Counted from the first letter of the stretch, positions 4,532 through 25,201 are shown. The stretch is DNA of 26,234 nucleotides from Promethearchaeota archaeon (GCA_011364975.1 RDOE01000046.1:1-26234); one strand, 5' to 3'. Made by a program: numbers and translations. Notes: a model not told the origin generated them from the letters alone.

Positions 4532-5710
4532 ATCAAACGTAAAACAACTATAATAATTATCATATTAATTATAGTTCTAGTCACTTCGGGATTAATTATT
4601 TCATTATTCATTTTTAATAAAAATCCTTTTTACAATATAGATATAGATTTAAATTTTGATGAAAGCCAAGCTTTTTCATATATAGAGGATCAATTGAATA
4701 TTAACACTACTCATTATCGAATTCCAGGTACTCAAGGTAGAGATGAATGTGCCAAATATATTATATCCAAGTTTCAACAGATTGACTCAAATTTTACTTG
4801 CATTCTCCATAATTTTACAGTAAATTCTGTAGGGTGCCAAAATTTATTGTTTAAAATGAATCTAAATTACTCAAACATTTTAATATTAGGTTCTCATTAT
4901 GATTCAAGAGCAAGAGCTACAAAGGATCCGGTTGATACTGATGCACCCGTTCCCGGTGCTAATGATGGTGCAAGTGGAAGTGCAGTATTAATTGAATTAG
5001 CTAATATATTATTTAAAAGGAAAGATGAACTCTCTGTACAGATTTGGTTTCTGTTTTTTGATGCTGAAGATCAAGGGTACGATTTAGGGCCTGGTATATC
5101 AGGTTGGGATTGGTGCGAAGGTTCTGAAAGGTTTGTAATTGATATTACAGGATTCTACAATAATTCTAAGGAAAATTTTGATGCAATGATATTATTAGAT
5201 ATGGTTGGTGGAACCAATCTTCAATTTATTAATGAACAACGCTCAACATCTTCTTTATTAGATGAATTATTCCAAACAGGCCGCGAATTAGGATACACTA
5301 ATCAGTTTCCTTCAAATCCAATTGTTGCCTCAATTTCTGACGATCATGTTGCTTTCATCGATTATGGTATTCCTTCAGCCGACTTAATTATCAACTTTTG
5401 GAATAATCCAAACTGGCCCTATCATCATACGACCCAAGATGATCTAATACATATATCAAATTATAGTTTAGAGGTTACGGGAAAAACTGTTGAACAATTT
5501 ATCTATAACAATTATTATAATTCTTCTAACCACAATTCTCAATGGAGTAATGATATCAATCTTCTTGATACAGATACATTAATTATTTTGATCTCTCTTA
5601 TATCTATTATTGGAGTTATATCCATCATTTTATATTTAAGATATAAACTTAGGAGAATAAGAGATAATGAAAATTTAAATCGAGGTATGAAAATAAGCAA
5701 TATTATCTAA
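4532..5710 (+). CDS. M28-family metallohydrolase, glutaminyl-cyclase-like, with N-terminal signal anchor and C-terminal TM helix
   Basis: 'GSHYDSR', 'GANDGASG', 'FFDAEDQG', 'LLDMVG', 'DDH', 'HHTTQD'. The frame is open upstream of TTG 4694 and encodes 'IKRKTTIIIIILIIVLVTSGLIISLFIF...FDESQAFSYI'. Start placed tentatively at ATC 4532. Confidence 0.82.
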   Translation: MKRKTTIIIIILIIVLVTSGLIISLFIFNKNPFYNIDIDLNFDESQAFSYIEDQLNINTTHYRIPGTQGRDECAKYIISKFQQIDSNFTCILHNFTVNSVGCQNLLFKMNLNYSNILILGSHYDSRARATKDPVDTDAPVPGANDGASGSAVLIELANILFKRKDELSVQIWFLFFDAEDQGYDLGPGISGWDWCEGSERFVIDITGFYNNSKENFDAMILLDMVGGTNLQFINEQRSTSSLLDELFQTGRELGYTNQFPSNPIVASISDDHVAFIDYGIPSADLIINFWNNPNWPYHHTTQDDLIHISNYSLEVTGKTVEQFIYNNYYNSSNHNSQWSNDINLLDTDTLIILISLISIIGVISIILYLRYKLRRIRDNENLNRGMKISNII

Positions 5711-6333
5711 TTCTTATCTTTAATGGCTAAAAATGCTCTGTGATTTGTCTTATCAATATACGTTTCCAATAGAGTAAATGATTTAAAAATTGACTTAAAC
5801 TCTCTTATCGTGAAAAAATGATGAGGTATACCTTTCTCCTGACCTTTTTGCGGGATAAATGTTTTTGGTTCAACTTTCTTTAAATCCCATTCTTCTCGAC
5901 TAAAGACGTTTAAGATCGGTACCGTAATAAAAATATATCCCCTTGGTTTCAATATTCTATCTATTTCTTGGGCGGTAAATATTATATCTTTCAATAAATT
6001 ATGATGGATTACTTGTATTGATATGATTGCATCGAAATATTCATTGGGATAAGGAAATTCTTGTTCAATTCTCTGACAACTTAACTCTACGTTCTGATTT
6101 TCCTCAGACAACCAATTTTTTGCTATCTCTAAACCTTTTGGAGAACCATCTAAACCATATACATCAAAACCTTCTTTAGACAAAAAAAGTAGATGGCGCC
6201 CAGTACCACATCCCAAATCTAATAATTTTTTAAAATTATTATCTTTGAATAACCTAGTAAGTTTTTGCATATCCGGATGCGGTTCTAAAAACACCTTACC
6301 GCGATTAGTAAAGATGTCATTCCAATCTGGCAT
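5707..6333 (-). CDS. Class I SAM-dependent methyltransferase
   Basis: 'LLDLGCGTGRH', 'VYGLDGS', 'FDAIISIQVIHH', 'RILKPRGYIFI'. Confidence 0.9.
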   Translation of the reverse strand: MPDWNDIFTNRGKVFLEPHPDMQKLTRLFKDNNFKKLLDLGCGTGRHLLFLSKEGFDVYGLDGSPKGLEIAKNWLSEENQNVELSCQRIEQEFPYPNEYFDAIISIQVIHHNLLKDIIFTAQEIDRILKPRGYIFITVPILNVFSREEWDLKKVEPKTFIPQKGQEKGIPHHFFTIREFKSIFKSFTLLETYIDKTNHRAFLAIKDKN

Positions 6334-6338
6334 TTGAA

Positions 6339-7307
6339 CTACCTAGTACGTCTCTCTTCGCATTCATAGAAATACTTTCCATACTTTTCTTTGAAAGCCT
6401 CAGCATGTTCGTCTACTTTCGGACGAATGAATTCTTGTCCATCCTTTATTGCTTCATAAGTCACTGGAAGTGGACCTAATACTTCTCCATCAACTTGGCA
6501 GAAGTAGGGTTCCTCATCAACGTTTTTCATTTCAATCCTTACCTTCCTACTCTGATATTCAAATACATTTGGATGAGGTAAAAGTGAGCCGCTATACATT
6601 TTAGAAAATTGAATTAATAGTTTTAATTTACTAATATCAACAATACTTATATCAAATAATCCATCATCGACTTTAGCACGTTGACAAATATACATTCCAC
6701 CCCCGTATGCCCCACCATTTCCAACAGCAACTAAATTTGCCAAATTCTCATAATTATCGTTATCCATTTTAACTATTATCTCTTTACTTTTAAAGGAAAA
6801 CAGACACTGAAAAATAATTAAATTATAATTTTTTCCTCCTTTCACATTTGATCTTCGCGCTACCTCTGCATCAAATCCTTGGCTTCCTATACCTAAAAAA
6901 TATCTATCAATTCCCTCATCAGTCTTTGCATAACCGATATCACTTTTACTTGAATAATCTTCTGCGATTACTTCACAAGCTCTCTTAATATCCGCTTTTA
7001 TCCCTATTGCAGCAGGTATATCGTTTCCAGAACCCATAGGAATAAATCCACATAATGCTCCTGTATTTGAGGTTACTACTCCATGTAACACTTGATTTGC
7101 AGTTCCGTCTCCTCCAGCCCCAATAACACGATAACCATCTTTAGCCATTTGTTGCGCTAATTCAATAGCATGTTTATCATACTCAGTTTCGACCAATTTA
7201 TATGAAATATTAAGTTTATCTAAGCATTTGAATGCAAATTCTAAGTCTTTCTTAGTTTTCCCTTTTTTGGCAATTGGATTATATATAATAGCGTAATCCG
7301 CTTTCAT
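6339..7307 (-). CDS. Diacylglycerol/lipid kinase family (YegS/DgkB/BmrU)
   Basis: 'IIYNPIA', 'GGDGT', 'IPMGSGND', 'GFDA', 'YGGG', 'DDGLFD', 'QVDGE'. ATG 7307; GTG 7316 is an alternative. Confidence 0.9.
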   Translation of the reverse strand: MKADYAIIYNPIAKKGKTKKDLEFAFKCLDKLNISYKLVETEYDKHAIELAQQMAKDGYRVIGAGGDGTANQVLHGVVTSNTGALCGFIPMGSGNDIPAAIGIKADIKRACEVIAEDYSSKSDIGYAKTDEGIDRYFLGIGSQGFDAEVARRSNVKGGKNYNLIIFQCLFSFKSKEIIVKMDNDNYENLANLVAVGNGGAYGGGMYICQRAKVDDGLFDISIVDISKLKLLIQFSKMYSGSLLPHPNVFEYQSRKVRIEMKNVDEEPYFCQVDGEVLGPLPVTYEAIKDGQEFIRPKVDEHAEAFKEKYGKYFYECEERRTR

Positions 7308-7491
7308 TTTAAACACTTGTAATTTTTGTTTGTTAAAAGCTTAAATAAATGAATAATATAACTTTAAATGTTCAAGAATTTAAAATTTTTAGTTTCTGCC
7401 TTTTTAATCATTTCAAGCTTTTATCATATGATTAGATATTAGTATATTAAAATAGAATTAAAAAGGACTTCAAGTATTAAATAATTTTAGT

Positions 7492-8007
7492 CTATTTTTC
7501 TTTCCATACACAACCACACCCTGAACAGGTATAGATTTTTCCATATATCCGAGGGAAATGGCTTATAATATCTGTTTTATCAATTGATTCATGAATCTTA
7601 AACCAGTTTTCATTAGCACAAATAGGGCACAATCTGCGACCATCTGGTTTTGGAATAATTAAAACCTTACCAGAATGATAAAGCGATTTATTATATCTTA
7701 TTGTATTTATCTCATTCTCTTGATCTGATAAATCTTTCATAAATGAATTAAAGGAGTTGGTTTGAGAGCCTCCGTTCCCATTATCTTGTTCAATAGTAGA
7801 TTGAGACAATTGTGTTTTAATTAATTTAATATAGCTTATTACGATTGGACCTATTTCTTTTTTTTTAGGTAATCTGTCATATTGCTTTACAAAATTATTC
7901 AAAAAATCGTCTACACTAGACTTTTCTATATTATATCCTTCCTTTTCAATTCCACGGATTATATCCTTAATAATGTATTCCTTTAATAATGGATCTTCCA
8001 TAAACAT
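7492..8007 (-). CDS. Hypothetical protein with C-terminal zinc ribbon
   Basis: 'GRRLCPIC...PRIYGKIYTCSGCG..W' gives two CxxC pairs. GGTGAGG just upstream of ATG 8007 suggests this start rather than the ORF-track start at 8106. Confidence 0.7.
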   Translation of the reverse strand: MFMEDPLLKEYIIKDIIRGIEKEGYNIEKSSVDDFLNNFVKQYDRLPKKKEIGPIVISYIKLIKTQLSQSTIEQDNGNGGSQTNSFNSFMKDLSDQENEINTIRYNKSLYHSGKVLIIPKPDGRRLCPICANENWFKIHESIDKTDIISHFPRIYGKIYTCSGCGCVWKEK

Positions 8008-8249
8008 AAAATAAACCCTCACCCTAAAGAGGTCATAAAATTGTCGAAATATTTTCTCAACTGATAAGAATAGAGTAAGATTTTTTACTATTAAATATTT
8101 TCTCAAAATCGAGTGATTCCGATCTTGGAGTTATTACTAATTTATTTGTCCATAATATCTGAACTCCCTATTATCGGATTAACCAAAATTTATATGTTTA
8201 AATTTATTTATCTAGTCAAAGAAAGGCTAAGGATACAGAAGATAAATAC

Positions 8250-8876
8250 ATGAAAAGCGCAACAGAAAAAGAAAAGAAAAAATTTCTTAATAAAAAAGTA
8301 ATTTTTGCTATAGTTATGATTAGTGTTGCATTCTTTGGCTCTTTTTTAGTGTATTTCATCCTTCAAGTTGCTCTTAATACAGAATCTCCTATAGTAGTTG
8401 TCGTTTCTGGGTCAATGGAACCTACTATTCATGAAGGAGACTTACTTTTTGTTAAAGGAACTAGCCCTGAGGATATAAAAAACGGAACTGCTGAAGATAA
8501 AGATGGAGATATTATTGTTTTTGATGCAAGAGGATTATGGATTGGAGCCCCAGAGGAACCTATTGTTCATAGAGTAATTGATAAATTTTTTGTTGGCGAC
8601 ATTTGGTATTTTAGAACAAAAGGTGACGCAAATTCCTTACCTGATGCAGCTCCAGTTCCAGAGTCAAATGTTATCGGTGTAGTTATAGGTGGTATACCTT
8701 ATATTGGTTGGGTTAAAATTTTTCTCACTAGATCTGGACTGTTAATACCACTCCTTGTAATCATATCCGCACTCCTCATCATTAGTATCATTCGAGATAT
8801 TATGAAAGGTGAAGAGGAGGATGAAGTTAAGGATAAAAAAGCTGATGAAGAAATCAGTAATGAAAAACGTGATTAA
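8250..8876 (+). CDS. sec11: Signal peptidase I, archaeal/ER (Sec11) type
   Basis: N-terminal TM, 'VVSGSMEP', 'GDLLF', 'GDIIVF', 'PIVHRVI', 'TKGDAN', C-terminal TM; Ser-His-Asp type. Confidence 0.93.
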   Translation: MKSATEKEKKKFLNKKVIFAIVMISVAFFGSFLVYFILQVALNTESPIVVVVSGSMEPTIHEGDLLFVKGTSPEDIKNGTAEDKDGDIIVFDARGLWIGAPEEPIVHRVIDKFFVGDIWYFRTKGDANSLPDAAPVPESNVIGVVIGGIPYIGWVKIFLTRSGLLIPLLVIISALLIISIIRDIMKGEEEDEVKDKKADEEISNEKRD

Positions 8877-9007
8877 CCTCGGAGTTTTACGATGTAATCC
8901 TATCTTCTTTTAGATTAAATATAATAATTTTTTATATTACTTATACTAACTATAAATTACTACATTAATAGCAGCAAAATTTAGAAATAGAAAAATGGTG
9001 TTTAATA

Positions 9008-9235
9008 ATGGCATGGACCCCTCCAAGTAAATTTACTGTATTTCTGTCGTTCCTCTTATTAGCTGGAGGATTGTTTATACTGATAGAATTGATTTTCACT
9101 CCTATTGGATTAGCCTTTCCCGTAATCACTGTAACAGGATTCTCATCGTTCCAAATTTGGGTCATGATTGGGTTAGGATTAGTCTTTCTTTCATGGATTT
9201 TGTTTTTATTAGGAGTAAGACTTAAAGGTATGTAA
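9008..9235 (+). CDS. Small membrane protein (2 TM helices), unknown function
   Basis: ATG preceded by GGTG; two hydrophobic stretches; T-tract right after the stop. Confidence 0.7.
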   Translation: MAWTPPSKFTVFLSFLLLAGGLFILIELIFTPIGLAFPVITVTGFSSFQIWVMIGLGLVFLSWILFLLGVRLKGM

Positions 9236-9247
9236 TCAAAACTTCCC

Positions 9248-9263
9248 TTTTTTTATTTTTTTT
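9248..9263 (+). terminator. Oligo-T archaeal terminator
   Basis: TTTTTTTATTTTTTTT starting 13 nt after the stop of 9008-9235. Confidence 0.55.
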
Positions 9264-9400
9264 AAAAAAACCTTGATTAATCTATTATTGACTTAATAAA
9301 ATTTTTAAAATTTCAAAGATTTAGAATTACTTGTACTAACCGTAATTTACTTATGGAAATTACGAAAATACATCAAAACATAGTACAAATACTACAAAAA

Positions 9401-9450
9401 AAACTTTAAAAAACTTTTAATCTAAAAAACAAAGAAAAAAACTATATAAA
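9401..9450 (+). promoter_or_regulatory. Candidate alba promoter (TATA-like boxes with A-rich BRE)
   Basis: Tandem AAACTTTAAA/AAACTTTTAA (9401-9420) and TATATAAA (9443-9450). The latter looks too close to the ATG, so the true box is uncertain. Confidence 0.35.
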
Positions 9451-9466
9451 TCAAGTGTATAAAAAA

Positions 9467-9748
9467 ATGCCTAGCAAAGAAGAAAATGCCGTATTTGTCG
9501 GCAGAAGACCTACAATGAACTACGTTATGGCCACTATGATGATTCTTAACAAAGGAGAAGAATGCACCGTTAAGGCCAGAGGTAGAGCGATCTCACATGC
9601 AGTTGATGTATGTGAAATTTTAAGAAACCGATTCTTAAAGGGTACAGAATACAAAGAGATTAAACTTAGTACCGAACAGCTTGAAGGAGAAAATGGACAA
9701 AACAATAATGTTTCAAGTATCGAAATTGTACTAGCTCCTCCAAAATAA
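9467..9748 (+). CDS. albA: DNA/RNA-binding chromatin protein Alba (Sac10b family)
   Basis: 'VFVGRRPTMNYV', 'VKARGRAISHAVDV', 'VSSIEIVL'; ATG at 9467. Confidence 0.95.
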   Translation: MPSKEENAVFVGRRPTMNYVMATMMILNKGEECTVKARGRAISHAVDVCEILRNRFLKGTEYKEIKLSTEQLEGENGQNNNVSSIEIVLAPPK

Positions 9749-9751
9749 ACA

Positions 9752-9810
9752 GAGGAAAGTCAATAATCCTCATCGGTTAAACAATTTAAAAACCACTCTT
9801 TTTTTTTATT
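9752..9810 (+). terminator. alba terminator (short hairpin plus T-tract)
   Basis: GAGGA/TCCTC stem (9752-9771) and a run of T at 9799-9807. Confidence 0.5.
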
Positions 9811-11695: not shown

Positions 11696-11912
11696 ATTTG
11701 ATCCTTTTTTTTATTATTAAATGAATTTTGCTAAAAAAATTTAATTTATATTACCTAAAAAAGAGAATTGAAAGAAAGCCTAAATTAAATAAATTCTCTC
11801 CACGCAAATTAACAACATTTAATAATACAAATGGTAATAATAAATATTAATAAAACACAGTTTTTTGTTTTATTACCTTTATTTCAAAATATAAAAAGAG
11901 GAATAGTTGAAA

Positions 11913-12113
11913 ATGGCTAAAAAAACAGGTAAGGTAGAACCCCTATTCGTAAAATCAAAAGTAAGAGAATATATTAAATCTAAGGATATGAATACTAGCT
12001 CAGGAGTATTGGATGGAGAAGCTTTAAATAATATGATAACCTGGATGTTAGATAGAGCAGTACAACGTGCCCAAGGAAACGGAAGAAAAACCGTAAAAGC
12101 ACGAGACATATAA
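11913..12113 (+). CDS. Histone-fold protein, short-alpha3 type (face-to-face / bacterial-like histone)
   Basis: 'LFVKSKVREYIK..DMNTS...LDRAVQRAQGNGRKTVKARDI*': L2 RKTV motif, R-D clamp, stop right after a truncated alpha3. GAGG upstream; TTG 11907 is an alternative start. Confidence 0.88.
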   Translation: MAKKTGKVEPLFVKSKVREYIKSKDMNTSSGVLDGEALNNMITWMLDRAVQRAQGNGRKTVKARDI

Positions 12114-12141
12114 AAAATATGATAATTTAATAATTTCAAAA

Positions 12142-12180: not shown

Positions 12181-14280
12181 TTAGATCAATTGTACTAATT
12201 TTTGTTTTTCAAATTTAGCTGTACTGATCCCAGTTGTATGATCCTTATCCACTATAATTTTGTGGGTATGAATATCGGTAGGAATTGCGGTGTGTGTGAT
12301 TAGAAATATTTGAGAGAAGGTTTGTGATTTGATGAGATGTTTGAGAATCCTCTCTCTACGAGTTTCATCTAAAGCTGCGAGAGGTTCATCCAGAAGCAAA
12401 AAATCAATCTTTGGATTTTTCTTAGGGGAATCCTTTGTTGGTCTTATTTTACTCATTAATTCTGAAATGGATAATCTTAAAGCCATTCCTAAAGCGGTTT
12501 TGTCACCCCCTGAAAGAACTTCAATTGATTCATGCACATTATTAAAATTATCTCTTATTTTAAGAGATAATCCGGTTTTTCTACTGCCAGAAAGATCGAG
12601 TAATAAATCACTGTATTGTCCAGAAGTAAAGTCTTTAATATATTTATTTGTGGTTAAAGCGATATTTTTCACCAATCTTTTAACTACCATATACTCGGTC
12701 ACAAATCTCCGCACATATTCTTTAGCTTTATTCAAATGGTCAAGATCAATTTCTAAATCACCAATTTTTTTTTCCAGTTCTTTCATGCGCTCGATTTCTT
12801 TTTGGAGATTTTCAATTTTTTTTTTATTTGATTCAATATATTCTTTTTTTTCTTCTATATCACGTTTTATAGAAATTAATTCTGTTCCAAACTTCTCTTT
12901 TTCAATAACTAGTTTTTTAATATTATCAGGGCTCGGATCTTTTATTTGAGATTTGATACTTTTAAGTGTTGTATCAAGCTCAGTCTGAATTTGAACAGAT
13001 TCTTTTTGATACTTTAAGATATTTTCATAATCACTTTTTAAATTTTCGATTTGAAATAATTGCTCATTATATTTATCTATTTGAGTTTGAAAACCATCTA
13101 ATTCAATATCAAAATTATCTAATAAACTCATTATAGCTTTTATTTTTTCTTGGTAAATAATAAGATCTTGATTGAATTCTTGAATCATTTCCTCATAATG
13201 TTCTTTAGTTAATACACTTTGGCAGGTAGGGCATTTTATACTTTCATTTTTTGCTTCATTTGTGGAAAATTGAAAGCTCTCTTGCATTTTACTAATTTTG
13301 CTTTGCACATCTTCAATGCGACCTTTGGTTTTTCCTAAGCCTCTTGTTGTTGCTATTTTTTTCTTATCAAGTAAATCCTTTTTGCTTATTAGATTATTTT
13401 TTTCACGAGTAAGTGTATTTACAATTTTAACTACATTTTGTGTCTTTTCGAAATCCTCTAATTTTAAACTAGAATTGCTTAATTTCTTGGAAAAATCTTC
13501 CTTAAATGACGCTAACTTGTCTAACGAATTTTCAATTTGTTTATATAAACTTTCTAATTGACTAATTATATCATTTGAGGGGAAAGATTTAAGCTTACTT
13601 TCGATTTCAGTTGCTTTTTTCGTATTAACCGAAAGTAATTTTTTGAATTGACTTATTTCATTTATCGTTCTTTCAATATCTTCTTCAATTCGTTCAAGAG
13701 GCACTCTGGATTTTTCTAACTGCTCTTTATTAAATCTTTTTGTCTTAGTTTCGCTATCAAGAATATTTAACGCATCATCGATAATATTGAGTCTAAATAA
13801 ATCAATAATCATTTCACGTAATTCTGCCCCTTTCTTATTTGCTAATTCTTCAACCTCCCCTTGTCTTACAAATACAGTACTCAATGCTTGTTCAGCAGAA
13901 ATTTCAAAAAAAGCTTCAATATTGAAATCTTTGATTTCACGGTATTGATTGGATTTATCCATTTTAAACAATTTTACGGATACACTACTCCCTCTTCCCC
14001 ATTTACGATAAAGATAATATTTCTCCTTATCTAATACAAAATATAAATAAATTTCTGCTTTATCTTGTACTCCATAAGTAATAAATGATTCTGCATTACG
14101 CCCTTTAAATAATTTTGGTCCAAAAAAAGCAAAGAGTATTCCTTCTAAAATGGTAGATTTTCCATACGAATTTTTACCACTTATTAAGATTAACCCTTTA
14201 GGTAAATCCTCATTTCCGTGGGGTAATATCAATTGTTTATACCCCATGAAGTTTTTAAATTGAATCTTAGTTATTTGCAT
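12181..14280 (-). CDS. rad50: DNA double-strand break repair ATPase Rad50 (SMC/SbcC family)
   Basis: Walker A 'GKNSYGKS', Q-loop 'VRQGE', central zinc hook 'CPTC' in coiled coil, signature 'LSGGDK', Walker B 'LLLDEP', H-loop 'LITH'. Confidence 0.95.
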   Translation of the reverse strand: MQITKIQFKNFMGYKQLILPHGNEDLPKGLILISGKNSYGKSTILEGILFAFFGPKLFKGRNAESFITYGVQDKAEIYLYFVLDKEKYYLYRKWGRGSSVSVKLFKMDKSNQYREIKDFNIEAFFEISAEQALSTVFVRQGEVEELANKKGAELREMIIDLFRLNIIDDALNILDSETKTKRFNKEQLEKSRVPLERIEEDIERTINEISQFKKLLSVNTKKATEIESKLKSFPSNDIISQLESLYKQIENSLDKLASFKEDFSKKLSNSSLKLEDFEKTQNVVKIVNTLTREKNNLISKKDLLDKKKIATTRGLGKTKGRIEDVQSKISKMQESFQFSTNEAKNESIKCPTCQSVLTKEHYEEMIQEFNQDLIIYQEKIKAIMSLLDNFDIELDGFQTQIDKYNEQLFQIENLKSDYENILKYQKESVQIQTELDTTLKSIKSQIKDPSPDNIKKLVIEKEKFGTELISIKRDIEEKKEYIESNKKKIENLQKEIERMKELEKKIGDLEIDLDHLNKAKEYVRRFVTEYMVVKRLVKNIALTTNKYIKDFTSGQYSDLLLDLSGSRKTGLSLKIRDNFNNVHESIEVLSGGDKTALGMALRLSISELMSKIRPTKDSPKKNPKIDFLLLDEPLAALDETRRERILKHLIKSQTFSQIFLITHTAIPTDIHTHKIIVDKDHTTGISTAKFEKQKLVQLI

Positions 14281-14287: not shown

Positions 14288-15598
14288 CTACTCCTCTGGC
14301 TGCTTCTCCATTACCCTAAGAGCTTTTTTTATTGCCTGCATACCAAAATTAGTGAGTTTATTTAGATCAAAGTTAGTTTTATCCTCAGTTAGTTTTTCAT
14401 TCACAAAATTTCTAAATTCCTCATCAGGCTTTTCAAGAATAAAATCTTCAATTATACCAGCACTGATGTCGTCTTCTAGTTGCTCTGAAATATCAGAGAT
14501 ATTCCATATTATTTGTAGTATGTTATATTTTTCAGGTTGAGAAAAGATTTCTCGTCTGATTCTGGACATTAACTCATTTATCTGCCAATTTTTTTCAAAT
14601 GTAATTTCCCCACTAAAATTAAACTTTAATCTTGCTGAAGTTTTATAATCAAAACCTTCTTTAGTAATACATGCAGTAAGTTCATTCATTATCAATGTTT
14701 CTAAATCCTTAGAGGTTTGACTGGGATTTGTATCGATTGATACAACTTCAAACCTTCTTTTTAATAAATTATTAATAAACACCTTGTTTACATTTAAATT
14801 TTTACTCTTATCATCGAGATCAACTATCAGATATCCTTGATTCTCATATACTTCTTTAAAATTCATTGGTAAGAGACTTCCCGTATAAAAGTGATTTTTT
14901 GAAACAGCCTTTAACCCATGTTCATGTCCTAAAGCTACATAATCATATCCAAAGTCATCAGAATATACTTTATTGTGCAATGTATTATCACCATTAGAAC
15001 CATGAGCTAAGGCAATGTTTATGTAATTATCATTTTTTGGAGGTCTTTGTTGCTCTATCCAATTATCATAAGCATTTGCATAGGACTCTTGTGCATTAAA
15101 TTCAAAATAAGGAAAAAGGTAAAATCTAACTTTTTTAACCTTAAACTCTAAACTCAAAGGAGAATTAGATTTAATAGCATTTATTAAATCCCTTTCTTTG
15201 AAATAGTATAAATTAGGATATATTTCTTTTTCAAAATGAGATTCAAAAGGAGTATAATCATATCCTTTAAACACACCATGATTACCTTCAATATATATGA
15301 AGGGAACTTTTTCATTTGTTTGTTTAAAAAATAGATTTAAACCTTCTTTTAAAGTTCTACGAGCAGGTTCTGGTGGAGGGTAAGAACTATTCTCTGAAGG
15401 AAGATGGAACATATCACCGCAATGAACAACGAAGTCTAGATCTTTAAGGTTAGAAATCTCATCGATTACCCTTAGAAAAATATCATAAATTTCTTGTTCA
15501 TACGGTTTAGAATAATTTTCAATAGCCCATTTGTTTATTACTCCCCTTCTAGCTCTATATCCTAGATGAGAGTCTGCCATATGGATAATTTTAACCAA
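14288..15598 (-). CDS. mre11: DNA repair nuclease Mre11 (SbcD-like metallophosphoesterase)
   Basis: 'HMADSHLG', 'CGDMFH', 'EGNHG', 'AHG', 'DYVALGHEH', 'YTGSL'; 7 nt from the rad50 start, with GAGGAG in its last codons. Confidence 0.93.
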   Translation of the reverse strand: MVKIIHMADSHLGYRARRGVINKWAIENYSKPYEQEIYDIFLRVIDEISNLKDLDFVVHCGDMFHLPSENSSYPPPEPARRTLKEGLNLFFKQTNEKVPFIYIEGNHGVFKGYDYTPFESHFEKEIYPNLYYFKERDLINAIKSNSPLSLEFKVKKVRFYLFPYFEFNAQESYANAYDNWIEQQRPPKNDNYINIALAHGSNGDNTLHNKVYSDDFGYDYVALGHEHGLKAVSKNHFYTGSLLPMNFKEVYENQGYLIVDLDDKSKNLNVNKVFINNLLKRRFEVVSIDTNPSQTSKDLETLIMNELTACITKEGFDYKTSARLKFNFSGEITFEKNWQINELMSRIRREIFSQPEKYNILQIIWNISDISEQLEDDISAGIIEDFILEKPDEEFRNFVNEKLTEDKTNFDLNKLTNFGMQAIKKALRVMEKQPEE

Positions 15599-15642: not shown

Positions 15643-16842
15643 TTATTCACCTAACACCTTTTTCCTCCATTCTTGCGCATAATTTTTTGTTTTTTTATTG
15701 AATTGTAACTCTAAAAAAGCACTTTCTAATTTATTATATTCTGAGACGAGTAATGTGCTAGCTTCATGCGCCCCACTTAAACTCAAGGGATATCCTCTTG
15801 GAGAATAGGGTATTAAACTTTTCAAAGCATAGATGGCATCTTTTGTATCTAAATAGTCACAAACATCGAATCTTAAAGCTGAACTAGATTGATTCAATTT
15901 TGCAATATAAGCTTTACTTTTAGTATATATTGAGAGATCTGGTAATTCTACTAAGAAATTACTATCATTTAATATCTCCGCCCATATAGGTAATATAAAA
16001 TTACCCTGAGCATCTCTTAGACGACAAGTTTTTGAAAAACTGTAATACTTTATATTAAAAGTCTCAATAAATTTGTAAAAGAATTCAGTAAAGGCGCTTG
16101 GTGGAAAAATGTGTTGCCGAAACATTTGAATTCCATCACCAAGAAAAACTACATTTTCATTTTTTCCCCAGTTACTTACATCTTTAATTCTAATAAGGGA
16201 TTTTAAAATTTCGTCAGCTGTTCTTATTCTGTCTATTACATGCCCTATCGTTGGATAGTAAAAATCATGTGCATTAATGTGTTCTTCTATTTTTGTTTTA
16301 TATGTCGATTTGTACCAATTAACTAATTTATCTACTTTAATTTTTAAATTGTTTATATAGAAATCTCTTTTAATAGTTTTTATAAAATTCTCTATTACCG
16401 TTTGGTATATTATAAGTTTATGTTCATTATCTTCAATATAAGTACTAATCGGTTTGTACATAATCTTTTCTATATTGTATTTGCCCTTCTCAAAAATAAT
16501 TTGACATTCACCAAATTTAAAAGATGCTAATTTGGCATATGTACCACTTAAGACGTTTGAACTCTCATCAAAGCCGATTATTTTATAACCATCATCAATA
16601 TAATCGATTAATTCATCTTTAATAATGTGATAAGGCATATCTATAAAGATGGAATTAGTATTTTTAAGACTTTCATCATTGTCAAATTTATCTGTTTCTA
16701 ATTCAATCTTTTCTTCTTCTGTCCATTTTACTCTTCGTTCTTGAATGTAATCTTTAAATTTTTTAACTTCTTCGTCAATTGATTTTTCTGGTCTTTCTTC
16801 AAAAGATTTTTCCAGCGATATTAATTCAAAGTCAAATGAAAT
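15643..16842 (-). CDS. nurA: NurA 5'-3' nuclease (divergent)
   Basis: 'IIGFDES', 'VFLGDGI', 'GYPLSLSGAHEAS' (NurA GYP..L..AH motif); lies between herA and mre11. The frame is open 68 codons upstream of ATG 16638, to ATT 16842. Confidence 0.82.
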   Translation of the reverse strand: MSFDFELISLEKSFEERPEKSIDEEVKKFKDYIQERRVKWTEEEKIELETDKFDNDESLKNTNSIFIDMPYHIIKDELIDYIDDGYKIIGFDESSNVLSGTYAKLASFKFGECQIIFEKGKYNIEKIMYKPISTYIEDNEHKLIIYQTVIENFIKTIKRDFYINNLKIKVDKLVNWYKSTYKTKIEEHINAHDFYYPTIGHVIDRIRTADEILKSLIRIKDVSNWGKNENVVFLGDGIQMFRQHIFPPSAFTEFFYKFIETFNIKYYSFSKTCRLRDAQGNFILPIWAEILNDSNFLVELPDLSIYTKSKAYIAKLNQSSSALRFDVCDYLDTKDAIYALKSLIPYSPRGYPLSLSGAHEASTLLVSEYNKLESAFLELQFNKKTKNYAQEWRKKVLGE

Positions 16843-16870
16843 TTACATCAACCTCATGTTTATAATAATT

Positions 16871-18613
16871 TCAAGGTAGTGCTGTTGGTGGAGGAGAAAT
16901 TCCTTGCGATTTAGCCTTTTTTGCGAAATTTTCATAATATTTTTTAGAAATTTGTTCAAAATAATCATCATATAAGGGAATTCGAAGTTTCTGAAAGTTA
17001 GTTAGCCATATACCCGAAATTAATGCGATTCCCCTTGTTCCCGTGAGTGATTCTAAATCATAAAGTTGAATCCCTCCTCCTAAAGTTTTAGCAGCAACCG
17101 ACTTCTCCTTCTCTGATCTTAATGGTAAATTAATAACGGTGTTCATGTTCGATAAAATAGTATCATCAATAGGAGAATATTGTTGAGAAATAACTTCTAA
17201 TGCCAAATTAAACTTTCGCCCTTGACGTGATATATCTTTAAACACATTATTGTATTTCATCATTTCTGGGCGTAAAATACTAGGGGCTTCTTCTATAGTA
17301 AATATTATTATTGGTAAATCTGATGGATCTTTTACGATATTTCCTGTTTTAAGATACAAATCTTTTATATTTTTTTTATAGTTCTGAAAAAATCCCTTTG
17401 GTAAGGTTTGTTTCAACTTTTGCTCTAATGTGGTAATATCTGTAGACGATTTCAGCGTTTTCCTAATATCAAATAACGTTCTCGCTAAAACACCATTAAA
17501 AAGAAATTGCTCTAGATCAGATATCATAGATGCATTAAAAATAATGACTCCTCCCCTTTCCAGCTTGTTAACAATATCAGCTAATTTACTCGAAGCATTT
17601 GATTGAAACATATCTGAGTATTCTAACCAATGCATTCTTCTTCTTATAGCTGCCATCGTTTTTTCATCATGACCACCAGGAGGTAGATATCCATCTAATA
17701 ATAAGTTTTCAATATAATTCTCAGGATCGCTTCTATATGCAGAAAAGATGGCTCCAACTTGCAGATCATTAAATGTACCTGTAGCAAATAAATCTTCAGG
17801 CTTAATTTCTTGATAGTTGATAATACATGGTTCTGCTAAGCTTTTAATCTCAGAGGGAGGAATTCCTTTATTAGGATAAAGGTAGAACCATGAACCAAAT
17901 AATTGGCTATTAAAATTCACTGCTTTGCAAATATCATATACTCCGAAATTCCTGCATCCGAGAGCATATTCATCATGCATATCAATTGCAAGCATAGAGA
18001 TTTTAGTTCCCTTATTACTCAAAATTACGTTAGCATTATGTTGCAATAAACCATCAATAAAAACCTGATTTAAATTTGACTTTCCCATACCTGTAGCCCC
18101 TGCAATAAAAAAATGGTACATTAAGTATTTATAAGGAAAATTAACTTGGACTTTACGCTGGGAAGCTAAGTAACCCATGAAGATACCATCTGGAGGGAAA
18201 ATATGCGCGATATACTTATAAATATCATTTTGATCATCAGAAATTTTCATTAAATGTGGTTTAATTATTTGCTTTTCCATCAAATCTTCAATTTCAAAAA
18301 AGACATTTGTAATATATTCTTCTTCTTTTGAACTTTTTTTATTTTTTTTAATAAAGATTATCGGTCGTCCTTGGATTACGTATTCTAATTCTGTTTCTAA
18401 TTCTGCTTTAATATAGTCTGTAATTTGAACATTTTTTAATTTCTGACGAGTGATAATATAATCTGCGATGGTTTGTTCATTAAGTATTTGAGTAATAATT
18501 ATATAGATATTCTCATCACTTTCTGCTTCAAGCTTAATAAATCCATGCAGATGTACGTAATTCTTATAAAAAATCTCTATTGTACTTTCTATAGAATTGA
18601 TTTTTATAATCAT
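16871..18613 (-). CDS. herA: HerA/FtsK-family ATPase (bipolar helicase/translocase HerA)
   Basis: 'HFFIAGATGMGKS', 'IDMHDEY', Walker B 'FTIEEAP', arginine finger 'RQGRKF', 'ISQ', 'ILSNMNT'; first gene of the repair operon. Confidence 0.9.
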   Translation of the reverse strand: MIIKINSIESTIEIFYKNYVHLHGFIKLEAESDENIYIIITQILNEQTIADYIITRQKLKNVQITDYIKAELETELEYVIQGRPIIFIKKNKKSSKEEEYITNVFFEIEDLMEKQIIKPHLMKISDDQNDIYKYIAHIFPPDGIFMGYLASQRKVQVNFPYKYLMYHFFIAGATGMGKSNLNQVFIDGLLQHNANVILSNKGTKISMLAIDMHDEYALGCRNFGVYDICKAVNFNSQLFGSWFYLYPNKGIPPSEIKSLAEPCIINYQEIKPEDLFATGTFNDLQVGAIFSAYRSDPENYIENLLLDGYLPPGGHDEKTMAAIRRRMHWLEYSDMFQSNASSKLADIVNKLERGGVIIFNASMISDLEQFLFNGVLARTLFDIRKTLKSSTDITTLEQKLKQTLPKGFFQNYKKNIKDLYLKTGNIVKDPSDLPIIIFTIEEAPSILRPEMMKYNNVFKDISRQGRKFNLALEVISQQYSPIDDTILSNMNTVINLPLRSEKEKSVAAKTLGGGIQLYDLESLTGTRGIALISGIWLTNFQKLRIPLYDDYFEQISKKYYENFAKKAKSQGISPPPTALP

Positions 18614-20614: not shown

Positions 20615-20757
20615 TTAATCACTTTAAAATCATTTGAATGAATTAACATTAGAAATTTAGGTTAAATAATATGTGATAATAAATAAGTTTCTCTTTGCTC
20701 TAAAATTGCTAAGGTGAATATATATTGTAAGAAGTTTATTAAGAAAAATACTAAATT

Positions 20758-21126
20758 TTAGAATTGATATTCTCTATTCCTTAGTTTTGAGACAAGATGA
20801 CCTCTCGAAAGTAATTGTATCCCAAATTGAGAGGAATAATCTCTTGAGAAATCAGTTGCGATATTACATATCATAATTCCTCCTTCTATATCTGGTATAT
20901 CAATACAGGCTTTATGAAGTTGACGCAACTGAGTGATTGAAATCTCACGCTTCCAATCACGGATAAAAACCCCGTAATTCCCGTATTTTTCATCCTTAAT
21001 TATTGCATTGAAGGTCCACGTTTTTCCCGATTGACCCCGTAATTTTTGTGGACCGATAACGAAATCGTATTTTTCAGAAAAAACTCTTTGGGCTAATTCT
21101 GTTAAACCTTTCTCTCCTAAAGACAT
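20758..21126 (-). CDS. Mrr-like restriction-endonuclease-fold protein, catalytically degenerate
   Basis: 'LRGQSGKTWTFNAII', 'GVFIRDWKREISITQLRQL', 'GGIMIC', 'GIQLLSRGHL' follow the Mrr_cat layout. Confidence 0.6.
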   Translation of the reverse strand: MSLGEKGLTELAQRVFSEKYDFVIGPQKLRGQSGKTWTFNAIIKDEKYGNYGVFIRDWKREISITQLRQLHKACIDIPDIEGGIMICNIATDFSRDYSSQFGIQLLSRGHLVSKLRNREYQF

Positions 21127-21313
21127 GATATCACATTAATTTTTATTTAAATATATTTCTTAGGTAATATTTAAATGTTATTTAGATAACTATCTTGAAG
21201 AATCATAAAAATAAGTAATACGGAGGTAATATCTTCAAAATCTACGCTATTTCATTTTAAATTATAAAACCATATATGCCGACAAAAAAGATTGATAAAC
21301 ATTATACCTTAAT

Positions 21314-22165
21314 TTAAACACTTAATTTAGTGAAATTAATAAGTTTAAGTAAGGTATACTCTCCTTCTGGGTCTTGACCATTTTGTAATATGAATTTATA
21401 AAGTGAATTGGCTATAAAATTAAAAAGTTTATTAATTATAGGTTCGCAAATGGAATTACACTCAAAATAATTATCTGGAAGAAAGTTACATCTCGGATTA
21501 TATGTTATACAAAACCTTTTCATTTGAAGAGACATTCCATCAGCCAGTAAAGTATCTAAATAATCCCACTTATCAATAATTCCTGCCAATTCACTGGGTT
21601 TAATACTTTTTAGTTTATTTAATAAATTAAAACAACCATCCTCTTCCTTAATTTGACGAGATGACTTTACACGGGTATTAATTTTTTTTAATTCATCTTT
21701 AGCTTCAAGTTTACAAAGAAATACGTATTTTTGCAAAATTTTTTCAGCTTTAATTGCGTCCGATGTATCTTTTATTGTCCAACCAGACATCTTCTTACAA
21801 CGTATTCTCTCATCAGTTAAATTTGAAAACCCTGTTGGATATATCCAACATTGAGGTGGCTTTATTCCAGAATTATGAACTGAACATCCATTAATCTTCC
21901 TATCAAAGAGGAAACATTTTCCGGTTATTTCATTGAATCTTAAATGAAATGCAAAATTATCACTTCTATTAAAATCCTCTATACTTGCATAACCTCTTTT
22001 TACATATTCTTCCGCAAGTACTTTTGGGACATCGATTTTAATTGAACAACAATCTCCCTTACAATTTTTAGGATCTGTACAATTAGGCCCCTCAATTGCG
22101 GATTTCATTAATGAATTGAACTGAGTAATAAGTTGCCAGAAAAGTAAATTCTCTCGATTATGCAA
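21314..22165 (-). CDS. YkgJ/CxxCxxCC-family Cys-cluster (Zn/Fe-binding) protein with extra C-terminal Cys cluster
   Basis: 'C..PKNCKGDCC', 'CFLFD....CSVH...KPPQCWIYP', later 'C......C.......ECNSIC'. Confidence 0.7.
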   Translation of the reverse strand: MHNRENLLFWQLITQFNSLMKSAIEGPNCTDPKNCKGDCCSIKIDVPKVLAEEYVKRGYASIEDFNRSDNFAFHLRFNEITGKCFLFDRKINGCSVHNSGIKPPQCWIYPTGFSNLTDERIRCKKMSGWTIKDTSDAIKAEKILQKYVFLCKLEAKDELKKINTRVKSSRQIKEEDGCFNLLNKLKSIKPSELAGIIDKWDYLDTLLADGMSLQMKRFCITYNPRCNFLPDNYFECNSICEPIINKLFNFIANSLYKFILQNGQDPEGEYTLLKLINFTKLSV

Positions 22166-22299
22166 GATAATTAATAGATCATCACTTTATTTAAAAAACT
22201 CTTTCTTTCCTTAAGTTTATATTATTAAAATGTTTTGCTTAATTAATAATTTATTTACTAGAAATGAATCAAAATGGATAATTAACGGTTTTTGGTAAA

Positions 22300-23292
22300 G
22301 TGCCAGACTTAATCATTATCGATATCACGGAAAATGAAAAAATACTGTTAGACGAATCATTAAATAAAAAAGAAATTAAAGGTAGTGGCAGGATCACCAT
22401 AAAAAACCCATCGAAAGAAAGTAAATTATGGAATTTAGGATGTGACTTAAAAGAAACGGTGCATACAACAATTAATACAAGAGAGATTAATATTGGAACC
22501 CTAAATCCAAGTCAAGAGTATATAATGAATTATGATATACAGAATCTGAAAGAACCCTCTTTAAAAATTATTGAAAGCTTTTATTCTAATAAAGAACTTA
22601 TAGATAAAGTAACTAATATCTCTCTTTTTAAACCAGATACCGACTATAAGTTACAGCTTAATTTAATCAATCTTCGTAAACATCCAATATCAAATGTAAA
22701 TATTACAAGAAATTTACCAGAAATTTTTCAAGATATTGAAGTAAAAACCCCTACTATAGGATTTGCTAGTATAAATGTGAATGATGGAATAAAAATCTTA
22801 AATTGGGATATTACTATATTAGAACCCGAACAAAAGGCTGAACTAGAAATTACTTTAAAGGTAAAATTTACTAATATAGAATCTTTTTCTCTTGGTTCAT
22901 TAAAGGGGACGTATTTAATTAATAACTTCAAATTAACGCTATTAAATCCCGAAATAAGAGGTTTAACGGATTCAATTTCTCGAATTCATCGTACTGAGAC
23001 CTCTCAACCTGATATATGGAATTGCAGTGTGGATTTTATTAATAAATCTAACTTTCAAATAAGAATTGAAGAAGTAAAAGTATCTCAAGAAGTAGAATCA
23101 GGAGGGAAAATAGTAGTATCTCAGACTCCAAATCGCTTACTTAATCCAGAAGAATCCTGGAATTATGATTTTACGGTTGAGAGCGAAAATGTTCCAGAAT
23201 TAAATTCAACAGTTGAATTTACACCTTTATATGCTGTTATAACGAGAGTTAAGGGAGAGATCGTAAAAGAATCTAGGATTTATTCCAGATAA
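22300..23292 (+). CDS. Cytoplasmic all-beta protein, candidate mu-homology-domain (adaptin/coatomer) relative
   Basis: No signal peptide or TM; alternating beta pattern; repeated 'W/I...L.P.(Q/E)' strands; segments resemble the AP mu C-terminal domain (see findings). The ORF is solid, the function tentative. Confidence 0.5.
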   Translation: MPDLIIIDITENEKILLDESLNKKEIKGSGRITIKNPSKESKLWNLGCDLKETVHTTINTREINIGTLNPSQEYIMNYDIQNLKEPSLKIIESFYSNKELIDKVTNISLFKPDTDYKLQLNLINLRKHPISNVNITRNLPEIFQDIEVKTPTIGFASINVNDGIKILNWDITILEPEQKAELEITLKVKFTNIESFSLGSLKGTYLINNFKLTLLNPEIRGLTDSISRIHRTETSQPDIWNCSVDFINKSNFQIRIEEVKVSQEVESGGKIVVSQTPNRLLNPEESWNYDFTVESENVPELNSTVEFTPLYAVITRVKGEIVKESRIYSR

Positions 23293-23464
23293 AGTGTTGA
23301 AATAAATAAACCCTATTCTTTAATTCTCTTCCTCATGTATATTTTTTATCTTCTATGAAATCACAATAATTATTAAACTGAAGTTCATAAATAATTCTAG
23401 ACGTTAGTTTTGGATTTAATTTTAAATCGATTATACCAGAAATATTTCGAATAAATAATTTAGT

Positions 23465-24541
23465 ATGAATGCTTACGAAAGATATCTAGCCGTTTTTGAT
23501 GATCAGAAGCGAAAAAAGATAGATCGTGTTCCTCTTCATGTTCAATATATACGTGAGGAGTTTATTGAGAAAAATAAGAGTGAATTAATGAATAATTACT
23601 CTGGAATATTATATCGGAATTATTATTATGATATTCCTATGATTTTAGGTTTTGACTCCATATTTGCTCCATTCCCTTCTAGTTATAAAATTAAACCCAT
23701 TAAAATTCGGAAAAATACATCTGTAACTCTTAAAATTGGAGAAAATGGGCAATCAACTAAGCATAATACTGAATATTATGAGGGGGGGTATATAAAAACA
23801 CTAGAAATACTTGAAAACTTAGAATCAAACTTAAAATTAGTCGATTCTACCGAACAAATTCAGAAGGTAATACGATATTATGAAAAAATATCATCAAAAA
23901 TCTTTCCAATTCTAATGGTCGATGGAATATTTGACCGGGTCTGGAAAGCAATGGGAATGATAGAATTTAGTAGACATTATAGAAATTGCTCAAAGTTGTA
24001 TAAGAAATTGATCAATTTCTATGCCAAGTTAACAAAGATAAACATTGAAGGATTAATAAATGCTACAGGAAATTCTGGAAAAGTTATTACTATTTTGGAT
24101 GATGTTGCATATAAAGGGCGTACAATGATCCCACCAACACGTTGGCAAATTGATTTCTGTCCGAATTATAAAGAAATTACCTCATTGATTAAGGATGCCG
24201 GAATGATCCCTCAACTACATACAGACGGAGACGTAACTGATTTAATCTCATCATTTATTGATGCAGGTTTTCTGGGTCTTCAAGGATTTGAAGGTGGGTG
24301 TGATCCTTATTACATCAATGATAATTTTCCAGAGTTTGTTATAATAGGTTTTGGAGATGTTTCTTATGTATTACCATATGGTTCTACTAAAGAAATTGAA
24401 GATCATGTGAGATATTTAATGGGTGCCTTAAAAGAAAATAGACATTTTATAATTGGACCAAGCACTGTCATTTTTAAAGAAATTTCCTTAAAAAATGTGA
24501 AATTCTTTATCGAAATTTGTAAAAAAGTAGGCACTTATTAA
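23465..24541 (+). CDS. Uroporphyrinogen decarboxylase / MtaA-CmuA methyltransferase superfamily protein
   Basis: 'MNAYER...IDRVP', 'ILDDVAYK', 'QLHTDGDV', 'LPYGSTKEI', 'FIIGPS...NV'. Confidence 0.82.
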   Translation: MNAYERYLAVFDDQKRKKIDRVPLHVQYIREEFIEKNKSELMNNYSGILYRNYYYDIPMILGFDSIFAPFPSSYKIKPIKIRKNTSVTLKIGENGQSTKHNTEYYEGGYIKTLEILENLESNLKLVDSTEQIQKVIRYYEKISSKIFPILMVDGIFDRVWKAMGMIEFSRHYRNCSKLYKKLINFYAKLTKINIEGLINATGNSGKVITILDDVAYKGRTMIPPTRWQIDFCPNYKEITSLIKDAGMIPQLHTDGDVTDLISSFIDAGFLGLQGFEGGCDPYYINDNFPEFVIIGFGDVSYVLPYGSTKEIEDHVRYLMGALKENRHFIIGPSTVIFKEISLKNVKFFIEICKKVGTY

Positions 24542-24685
24542 TTCATTCTACAAAATATCCTTATTTTAACTACTTATTTATAGTTTTGATTAATAATAAT
24601 ATTTTATAAACCAAATTATCAAATAAATAACAATATACAAGAAATATAAGAAATTATAATTGAAAAAAAATCAGGAGGTTATTTA

Positions 24686-25201
24686 ATTACGGGAAAGAAG
24701 ATTGCATTATTAGCAACTGATGGATTTGAAGACGCAGAACTTATATATCCAATGTATAGACTGATTGAGGCAGGTTATGAAATAGAACTAATTAGTTTGC
24801 ATCGTAGAGAAATTATAGGAAAACATGGATACCCTTTAAAACCTCATAAGTTAATAAAGGAGGTAACACCAGATGATTATGACGGAGTCATTATTCCAGG
24901 TGGGACTAAAAACCCGGATTATTTAAGAAGAGAACCAGATATTTTAAATTTTGTCTCTAAAATAAATAGACAAGGGAAATTAGTAGGAGCCGTATGTCAT
25001 GCGGGATGGGTATTAATTTCTGCAAAGATTATAAAGGATCGGAAAGCTACTGCCTATTTTGCCATTAAAGATGATATGATAAACGCGGGAGCTAACTTTG
25101 AAGATAATGAGGTAGTTATTGATAACAATCTAATTACGTCACGCATGCCAGCAGATTTACCTGAATTTATGAAGGCAGTATTGAAATTTTTAAAAAATTA
25201 A
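24686..25201 (+). CDS. pfpI: PfpI/DJ-1 family intracellular protease/deglycase
   Basis: 'IIPGG', nucleophile 'AVCHAG', 'DNNLITSR.P.DL'. The conserved N-terminus 'KKIALLATDGFEDAELIYP' lies upstream of ATG 24752, implying start at ATT 24686 behind GGAGGT. Confidence 0.92.
   Translation: MTGKKIALLATDGFEDAELIYPMYRLIEAGYEIELISLHRREIIGKHGYPLKPHKLIKEVTPDDYDGVIIPGGTKNPDYLRREPDILNFVSKINRQGKLVGAVCHAGWVLISAKIIKDRKATAYFAIKDDMINAGANFEDNEVVIDNNLITSRMPADLPEFMKAVLKFLKN

Follow-up and report, generated by a model that had tools for sequence, protein, structure and literature searches.

infC keeps an AUU start codon across bacterial species. According to one study, infC and pcnB carry the only confirmed AUU starts in Escherichia coli (Hecht et al., bioRxiv 10.1101/063800). 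At both, a near-cognate AUU lies behind a Shine-Dalgarno (SD) sequence at a specific gene, and the weak start acts as a gene-specific expression setting. Here we describe putative starts of this kind at three genes, encoding the nuclease NurA, an M28-family peptidase (M28) and a DJ-1/PfpI-family protein (PfpI), in a 26,234-base stretch of DNA from a Promethearchaeota archaeon (GCA_011364975.1, RDOE01000046.1:1-26234; the whole stretch is called the window below). We use ATH for ATT, ATA and ATC, and canonical for ATG, GTG and TTG.

Among archaea, the natural aEF1A start of Pyrococcus abyssi reads GGAGGUGAU-UUAA-AUG (PMC6237735). It has the same SD core and spacing as the starts described here, where GGTGA, AGGTGA or GAGGTG stands 4–7 nucleotides (nt) before the start. 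The model in that work, in which the initiator tRNA locally samples triplets in the P site, would fit the near-cognate positioning proposed here, but the P. abyssi systems use AUG, and aIF1 is described as acting against non-AUG complexes (PMC6237735). Reviews of archaeal initiation name only AUG, GUG and UUG as starts, and SDs are described as not prevalent at annotated Prometheoarchaeum starts (PMC7531240). In a Haloferax volcanii ribosome profiling study, ~30% of putative alternative initiation sites were near-cognate (PMC7261190). That finding resembles our case in that archaeal ribosomes can engage near-cognate codons, but the H. volcanii sites were alternative or novel, were set aside as possible false positives, and were not the sole conserved start of a main open reading frame (ORF). 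Our literature search, which left out most subscription journals, returned no report of ATT, ATA or ATC initiation in Asgard archaea or at nurA.

Compared with infC and pcnB, the genes here would be read by archaeal aIF1/aIF1A/aIF2 machinery instead of with bacterial IF3, and their products are different: a nuclease for DNA-end resection, a peptidase of the membrane and a member of the DJ-1/PfpI family. ATT, ATA and ATC all occur, with a gene-specific preference (ATT at NurA, ATA at M28), and the window frequency of 3/26 genes is far above the E. coli figure. infC has a regulatory link to the fidelity factor IF3; an autoregulatory logic is not known for the genes here. Three marks of an infC-type start were present: coding sequence 5' of the canonical starts, a conserved near-cognate codon with occasional AUG, and an SD at functional spacing.

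Nearest-homologue names placed the window (~30% G+C) in Promethearchaeota (Asgard archaea). We counted 26 complete genes, starting with ATG (20), TTG (2), GTG (1) or ATH (3). The original prediction, made from the window alone, had held that three of about 24 complete genes have coding N-termini with no canonical start and an SD-positioned ATT or ATC; the three genes stood and the total did not. Each codon was found where it had been placed, and the predicted span, 4532..24688, runs from the first base of the M28 ATC to the last base of the PfpI ATT. The observation is thus confirmed, while its interpretation as relaxed start selection is partly supported, as set out below.

Proposed start sites of NurA, M28 and PfpI

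Three window frames, those of M28, NurA and PfpI, stay open far 5' of any canonical codon. The following features are proposed.

15643..16842, minus strand: NurA nuclease coding sequence, 399 amino acids (aa), 68 residues longer than the call at ATG 16638
16840..16842, minus strand: proposed NurA initiation codon ATT, in an orthologous column that is mostly ATH
16843..16845, minus strand: in-frame TAA directly 5' of the NurA ATT, read from the sequence
16851..16855, minus strand: SD motif GAGGT in the 28-nt HerA-NurA spacer, 8 nt 5' of the ATT, aligned spacing 6 nt
4532..5710, plus strand: M28-family (glutaminyl-cyclase-like) peptidase coding sequence, 392 aa; signal-anchor helix at the N-terminus, hydrophobic helix at the C-terminus
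4532..4534, plus strand: proposed M28 initiation codon ATC, in an orthologous column of ATA/ATC
4521..4526, plus strand: SD-like GGTGGG with a 4-nt exact SD match (GGTG), 5 nt before the ATC, aligned spacing 6 nt
24686..25201, plus strand: DJ-1/PfpI-family protein coding sequence, 171 aa (database form 149 aa)
24686..24688, plus strand: proposed PfpI initiation codon ATT, from Pfam and PH1704 alignments and orthologues
24673..24679, plus strand: SD motif AGGAGGT, a 7-nt match, 6 nt before the ATT, aligned spacing 4 nt

We consider it quite likely that NurA, M28 and PfpI are translated from AUU, AUC and AUU, respectively, as selected, gene-specific, SD-directed near-cognate starts. In the alignments, the coding sequence extends up to the ATH codon with no canonical start available, the SD is conserved together with its spacing, and the ATH codon is conserved with occasional ATG; for all three genes, the SD-positioned ATT or ATC is the only start site that these comparisons predict consistently. 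We regard conservation in orthologues as the decisive evidence. SD-consensus matches of at least 5 nt at 3–10 nt upstream occur at 3.1% of window positions and those of at least 6 nt at 0.55%, while the matches at the three genes span 5 nt (NurA), 4 nt (M28) and 7 nt (PfpI). The consensus was built from the motifs conserved here plus the P. abyssi example, not from this lineage's own 16S rRNA 3' end, and aligned spacing is the number of nt between the start and the site that corresponds to the A of GGTGA.

Orthologue DNA came from a NurA-alignment scan of species-representative genomes, which gave 52 loci (847 kb in total) from Promethearchaeota-type metagenome-assembled and other genomes; cultured species were not among them, L002 and L004 are from complete records, and the NurA N-terminus was present in 50. 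Start codons were counted in family alignments with start columns, definable for 24 protein families. These alignments replaced a BLAST-extent survey that had flagged 221/520 genes and proved artefactual, as its alignments continued into AT-rich DNA that is conserved 5' of the genes, and shadow ORFs on the opposite strand had been left in.

NurA belongs to a herA-nurA-mre11-rad50 operon on the minus strand (18613-12181), an order kept in the loci, with HerA, Mre11 and Rad50 each found in 46–50 of them. In the NurA frame (16842-15643), the earliest canonical codon is ATG 16638 at codon 68, and the chance of 68 random triplets without a stop is 0.006. The in-frame TAA adjoins the ATT, as it also does in L026, so no start further upstream is possible. 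The start column read ATT in 33 of the 50 loci, ATA in 6, ATC in 4 and ATG in 4 (L004, L024, L032 and L044); the other 3 rows were distant homologues (36–39% identity) with GTG or ATG one codon upstream. The exchange of ATG and ATH between orthologues that the original prediction had looked to for a check was thus found. A GGTGA-type SD preceded nearly all NurA starts, with a match of at least 5 nt at 2–12 nt upstream in 43/50 rows. In 28 of the 43 ATH loci, the frame held no canonical codon from the upstream stop, in many cases the TGA within GGTGA, to the ATH; in the remaining 15, the sole upstream candidate was either the GTG that forms part of the SD or a TTG immediately 5' of the SD. Residues after the ATH were kept, with synonymous DNA changes. 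We examined readthrough or a HerA-NurA fusion and rejected it, as the two frames differ and in-frame stops precede the ATH.

Protein comparisons pointed the same way. Many of the 76 NurA homologues listed, at ~399–402 aa, span 100% of the extended frame; six have Met exactly at the window's ATT, and 15 were called from an internal Met (330–333 aa). An AlphaFold model built on 20 sequences (the window protein and 19 homologues, 37–88% identical to it) had a predicted local distance difference test score (pLDDT) of 85, with residues 1–20 at 82–88 and a poorly defined linker at 41–60. In Foldseek, this model matched NurA structures with E from 4.9e-9 to 2.7e-5 and TM-scores of 0.3–0.5, including TdpAB chain 8wfd_G (4.9e-9), Sulfolobus solfataricus NurA 2ygk (1.4e-8), Thermococcus kodakarensis HerA-NurA 9x1n (1.8e-7) and NurA 3tai (1.3e-5). 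The window protein had no Pfam match at E<=0.01, while 13/20 of the aligned sequences matched the NurA profile PF09376 (best E 1.1e-6).

A quick IQ-TREE tree was built from the 50 NurA rows with an ORF contained entirely in its locus, namely the window and 49 rows from 48 loci; two loci cut off by a contig end (L024 and L042) and two fragments (L043 and L046) were excluded. The tree had ATH throughout a 47-row clade, the three ATG rows as separate tips, and an outgroup with GTG or ATG. L004 (ATG) grouped within a supported set of 12 rows whose other members all have ATH. The third base of the NurA ATH (ATT 34, ATA 5, ATC 4) differed from that at an Ile column seven codons on (ATT 13, ATC 20, ATA 17), and the M28 start column differed likewise from its mixed internal columns. 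The third base at both start columns therefore appears less free than at ordinary Ile columns, an argument weakened by the relatedness of the rows. At NurA and M28, ATH has been kept across Promethearchaeota down to ~47% protein identity. As a separate observation, L044 (contig JAWOCD010000033.1) carries two NurA paralogues, P0068 and P0069, with consecutive locus tags, both with ATG and on long tree branches.

The M28 frame (4454-5710, plus strand) has 419 open codons, with its earliest canonical codon, TTG 4694, at codon ~80 and its first ATG at codon 134. Lys-Arg-Lys and then a hydrophobic helix follow straight after the ATC, and M28 homologues likewise begin with Ile-Lys-Lys/Arg and a hydrophobic helix. 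The protein matched Pfam Peptidase_M28 (E=1.4e-30) and the PDB entries 3tc8, 3gux and 6qro (E 1e-27 to 7e-25), and homology to these solved structures begins at frame residues 58–68, 13–23 residues before the TTG (residue 81). The start column held ATA in 13 of 15 rows, ATC in 1 (the window) and another codon in 1. Seven of the 15 rows had no canonical codon between the upstream stop and the ATH, the next one lying 50–105 codons downstream. In 7 of the 14 ATH rows, the SD or the bases immediately 5' of it contained a GTG or TTG in frame. GGTGA, AGGTGA or GGTGAT stood at the same place in the orthologues, with an SD match of at least 5 nt in 8/15 rows.

The PfpI frame (24650-25201, plus strand) reaches its first canonical codon, ATG 24752, 22 codons past the ATT, and its AGGAGGT is the strongest SD-like motif at any gene start in the window. 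Pfam DJ-1_PfpI (PF01965) aligned over profile positions 1–164 of 165 (E=3.1e-54), with position 1 at frame residue 16, three residues beyond the ATT and 19 short of the first ATG. In the solved Pyrococcus horikoshii protein PH1704, residue 2 aligned to frame residue 17, and a Cys-His pair, which we take to be catalytic, was aligned as well. The closest homologue (91% identity) begins Met-Val-Lys-Lys-Ile-Ala, against (ATT)-Thr-Gly-Lys-Lys-Ile-Ala in the window. Among the database homologues of PfpI, seven start with Met-Lys-Ile-Ala, and in nine forms of 163–174 aa the called start falls within the domain. Orthologue DNA was available from three loci: L005 and L047 have ATT, preceded in each by in-frame stops, and L001 has TTG. 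The L005 ATT is the called start of the NCBI protein P0106, so an ATT start has been accepted in at least one annotation run. The distance from the upstream stop to PfpI is 145 nt, and this AT-rich spacer looks as if it carries a promoter of its own.

Explanations for the ATH codons and their spread

Start columns of the other families were overwhelmingly canonical, and three of the genes served as context in the window itself.

16871..18613, minus strand: HerA helicase coding sequence (Pfam DUF87/HerA), the operon partner 5' of NurA, with ATG and no SD; used as control
15596..15598, minus strand: Mre11 TTG start, canonical alternative start, for context
22300..22302, plus strand: GTG start of a DUF11-like gene, canonical alternative start, for context

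Codons in the orthologous start columns, with rows carrying an SD of at least 5 nt where counted, were as follows.

HerA: ATG 48/49; SD in 1/49
Methyltransferase: ATG 23/23; SD in 0/23
hyp122: ATG 29/30
DUF11-like: ATG 18/19, the 19th being the window's GTG; SD in 0/19
UROD-like: ATG 9/9; SD in 0/9
Mre11 (47 rows): ATG 38, TTG 5, GTG 3, ATA 1; SD in 23/47
Rad50 (42 rows): ATG 36, GTG 3, TTG 2, ACG 1, ATH 0; SD in 39/42
Families 12 and 13: TTG 18/18 each
CxxCxxCC family: GTG or TTG

The window's TTG at mre11 and GTG at 22300, both put forward in the original prediction as alternative starts, agreed with these columns, and position 2 of the Pfam Metallophos profile falls at Mre11 residue 3 counted from TTG 15598. 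The columns of the CxxCxxCC, DAGK and ChsH2-like families were at first unclear and resolved to GTG/TTG, ATG and ATG/GTG, respectively. ATH dominated in 2/24 families with a definable start column (NurA and M28), and in none of the 8 families with at least 6 members that are absent from the window, all of which were canonical. ATH-dominant starts were confined to families that carry an SD; SD-less families had ATG or TTG.

We tested spacing by anchoring on SD 5-mers followed by a frame of at least 100 codons, with an in-frame stop no more than 20 codons upstream and no canonical codon nearby. ATH peaked at aligned spacings of 6 and 7 nt (28 and 8 cases), ATG spanned 4–9 nt, and control triplets were flat at 0–6 per spacing. 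With NurA and M28 removed, 9 ATH cases remained at spacings 4–8 against 6 composition-matched A/T control triplets, and only ~3 of these seem genuine: the PfpI starts of the window and L005, and that of a zinc-ribbon gene in L046. Three others, ATT codons 5' of the methyltransferase in L015, L016 and L018, were rejected as false positives, as the family's conserved ATG lies eight codons downstream. An independent sample, drawn from beyond the large syntenic families, comprised 112 non-shadow ORFs with a minimum length of 110 codons, 42 of them with an N-terminal Pfam domain; the first canonical start lay inside the aligned domain in 1/42, again PfpI in L005.

Sporadic non-canonical cases turned up in other loci. 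Mre11 in L045 has AGGTGA 5 nt before an ATA, and the L046 zinc-ribbon gene has AGGTGA, with its TGA in frame, 6 nt before an ATT and its first canonical codon at 29. An MBL-like paralogue (L023:2314-3192, minus strand) reads TAA-ATA-ACG where four relatives have ATG, and Rad50 in L005 (12550-14650, plus strand) has ACG in the ATG column. Both of these frames open just 1–2 codons 5' of the ACG; translation may begin at ACG, the gene may be a pseudogene, or the sequence may contain an error. Non-canonical start columns of Alba (L005), hyp204 (L006) and an aminotransferase (L050) were discarded, as a canonical codon is adjacent or 3 codons upstream.

The original prediction had suggested that the cases may reflect relaxed selection throughout the lineage, with ribosomes accepting AUU, AUA or AUC almost like AUG wherever an SD positions the codon, as a routine matter genome-wide. 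Such a regime would produce the 3/26 window genes with ATH, the sporadic cases just listed (Mre11, zinc-ribbon, MBL-like and Rad50 ACG) and a deposited annotation from ATT (P0106), but we think it unlikely. Codon choice is bimodal by gene: NurA had 43 ATH and 4 ATG and no GTG or TTG in its start column over 50 loci, while Rad50, equally SD-led (39/42), had no ATH in 42 rows and Mre11 a single ATA in 47, so flips between ATG and ATH are not frequent in other SD-led genes. Neighbouring HerA (48/49) and the methyltransferase (23/23) keep ATG. ATH enrichment at SD-optimal spacing, which routine use should produce, was absent beyond NurA and M28 in this small, NurA-centred sample of 847 kb (9 versus 6), and the independent sample and the off-window families (1/42 and 0/8) agree. 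ATH use is concentrated in particular genes. Another possibility, that the cases are assembly or sequencing errors or pseudogenes that lost their start codon, is effectively refuted: single-base ATG-to-ATT errors are conceivable in a metagenome-type contig, but ATH recurred in 43/50 separately deposited NurA records and at 13/14 M28 loci, with intact frames and conserved SDs.

Termination-reinitiation coupling, in which ribosomes leaving an upstream gene restart at a nearby ATH that is tolerated through operon position only, draws on the placement of NurA, whose ATH lies 11–40 nt after the HerA stop (median 31, n=46), and of M28, which follows a same-strand ChsH2-like gene. The junctions of Mre11 (median gap 39 nt) and Rad50 (median 6 nt) are at least as tight, yet both genes use ATG, so operon position does not explain ATH; M28 and PfpI lie 73–80 and 145 nt from their upstream stops, and a conserved SD at fixed spacing favours SD-directed positioning. 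We therefore hold this very improbable. Least probable of the readings short of error is a start at the next canonical codon downstream, with the short proteins as annotated and the upstream conservation owed to another cause. Gene callers do give the short forms, and the Pfam M28 model alone begins past the internal ATG. Against this, a short PfpI would lack the first 19 residues of its Pfam domain, the stretch that aligns to the PH1704 N-terminus, and a short M28 would lack the signal anchor and the 13–23 residues homologous to solved structures; the NurA extension is kept at the protein level, and four loci have ATG exactly at the NurA ATH position.

Selected, SD-directed near-cognate initiation would work as follows. 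Pairing of the SD with the 3' end of 16S rRNA (GGUGA-type core) would position the small subunit and thereby put the near-cognate codon in the P site, 4–7 nt past the position equivalent to the A of GGUGA. Initiator Met-tRNA would pair with the first two bases and tolerate the third-position mismatch, and the protein would begin with Met. We infer that initiation there is less efficient than at AUG and tunes expression: selection most probably keeps ATH as a built-in weak start for low or regulated output. The HerA hexamer binds a NurA dimer. The weak start could set the level of NurA relative to its operon partner HerA, or its purpose could simply be to keep the nuclease scarce.

Several points weigh against SD-directed near-cognate starts at these genes. 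In E. coli reporters, AUA, AUC and AUU gave 1–2% of AUG output (Hecht et al., bioRxiv 10.1101/063800), which would leave NurA far scarcer than the 3:1 HerA:NurA complex needs, and aIF1 is reported to destabilise non-AUG initiation complexes (PMC6237735). The GTG or TTG in or just 5' of the SD is a formally possible start in the 15/43 NurA loci and 7/14 M28 rows that have one. The window's M28 SD match is just 4 nt, against a 15% background, and PfpI orthologue DNA is limited to 3 loci. Rows are phylogenetically related and their counts are not independent events, and all support is comparative.

A wider extrapolation is that Promethearchaeota possess a translational regulon of SD-led AUU, AUA and AUC starts (perhaps also ACG), comprising NurA, M28, PfpI and more, in all several percent of the genome, with its output set by aIF1/aIF1A-dependent stringency. 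We offer this tentatively and rate it as rather unlikely.

Annotation and other genes of the loci

Usual gene finders consider only ATG, GTG and TTG. The systematic truncation that had been foreseen for automated annotation was borne out, with the window's PfpI stored as the 149-aa P0081 and M28 as a 338-aa form in the protein database. None of the 16 public NurA calls mapped to the loci began at ATH; each used either an ATG or TTG within the gene or the GTG of the SD. Of 15 public M28 calls, 12 began at a GTG inside or just before the SD. Annotation costs NurA up to 68 residues, M28 its signal anchor and PfpI the first 19 residues of its domain. Proteins from other genomes gain spurious residues because a GTG inside the SD is called as the start; with a GTG in the SD or a TTG just 5' of it, database NurA proteins carry two or three extra residues before the conserved Ile. 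Asgard proteomes are heavily mined for eukaryote-like proteins, and mis-called starts matter there.

That a near-cognate start has persisted for so long at a DNA-repair nuclease, among operon partners with ATG, suggests that translation is deliberately tuned, either for subunit ratios or for the level of a harmful nuclease. Archaea combine eukaryote-type start-selection factors with SD pairing, and conserved AUU and AUA starts would be a substrate for testing whether an SD can override aIF1 proofreading. The suggested bearing on the evolution of eukaryotic start-site fidelity is speculation.

Start regions fell into two groups, SD-led (NurA, Rad50, partly Mre11, and M28) and SD-less (HerA, the methyltransferase, DUF11-like and UROD-like genes), and the latter may be leaderless or SD-independent. 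Some SD-less genes strictly keep TTG (families 12 and 13), and the window gene at 21314-22165 (minus strand) is listed alongside them, with the GTG/TTG of the CxxCxxCC family. That TTG is kept where TTA was seen for Leu at other positions suggests selection on the start codon.

Two apparently startless families were rejected. "hyp86" family 14 (window 11879-12139, minus strand; an 86-aa ORF conserved in 36 loci) is the shadow of a plus-strand ATG gene at 11913-12113, which encodes 66 aa and has a weak, sub-threshold histone-fold match (PF00808, E=0.0033). Family 16 (8965-9252, minus strand) seems to be the shadow of a plus-strand gene at 9008-9235, which starts with ATG and encodes a 75-aa membrane protein with no Pfam or Rfam match. 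Rfam and tRNA scans of both regions found nothing.

At 7492-8106 (minus strand), the 204-aa call from TTG is probably too long, as orthologues have ATG in 24/25 rows at the column equivalent to the window's ATG 8007, which gives 171 aa. Rad50 (12181-14280, minus strand) has 699 aa against a family median of 707; this seems short for an archaeal Rad50, and our guess is a shortened coiled coil. In the PCMT-like protein at 25210-26184 (minus strand), the Pfam match opens at residue 1 with profile position 61, and the C-terminus is extended by 175 aa; its ATG is kept in 8/8 orthologues, so the short N-terminus is genuine. The DUF11-like gene at 22300-23292 (plus strand) encodes a much shorter form of its family, 330 aa against a median of 712 aa. 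Flanks of the NurA loci hold Asgard eukaryote-like genes for actin (Pfam E=7e-133), two Ras-family GTPases and gelsolin-repeat proteins, located at L032:8425-9603 (minus strand), L004:16860-18830 (plus strand) and in L019/L021.

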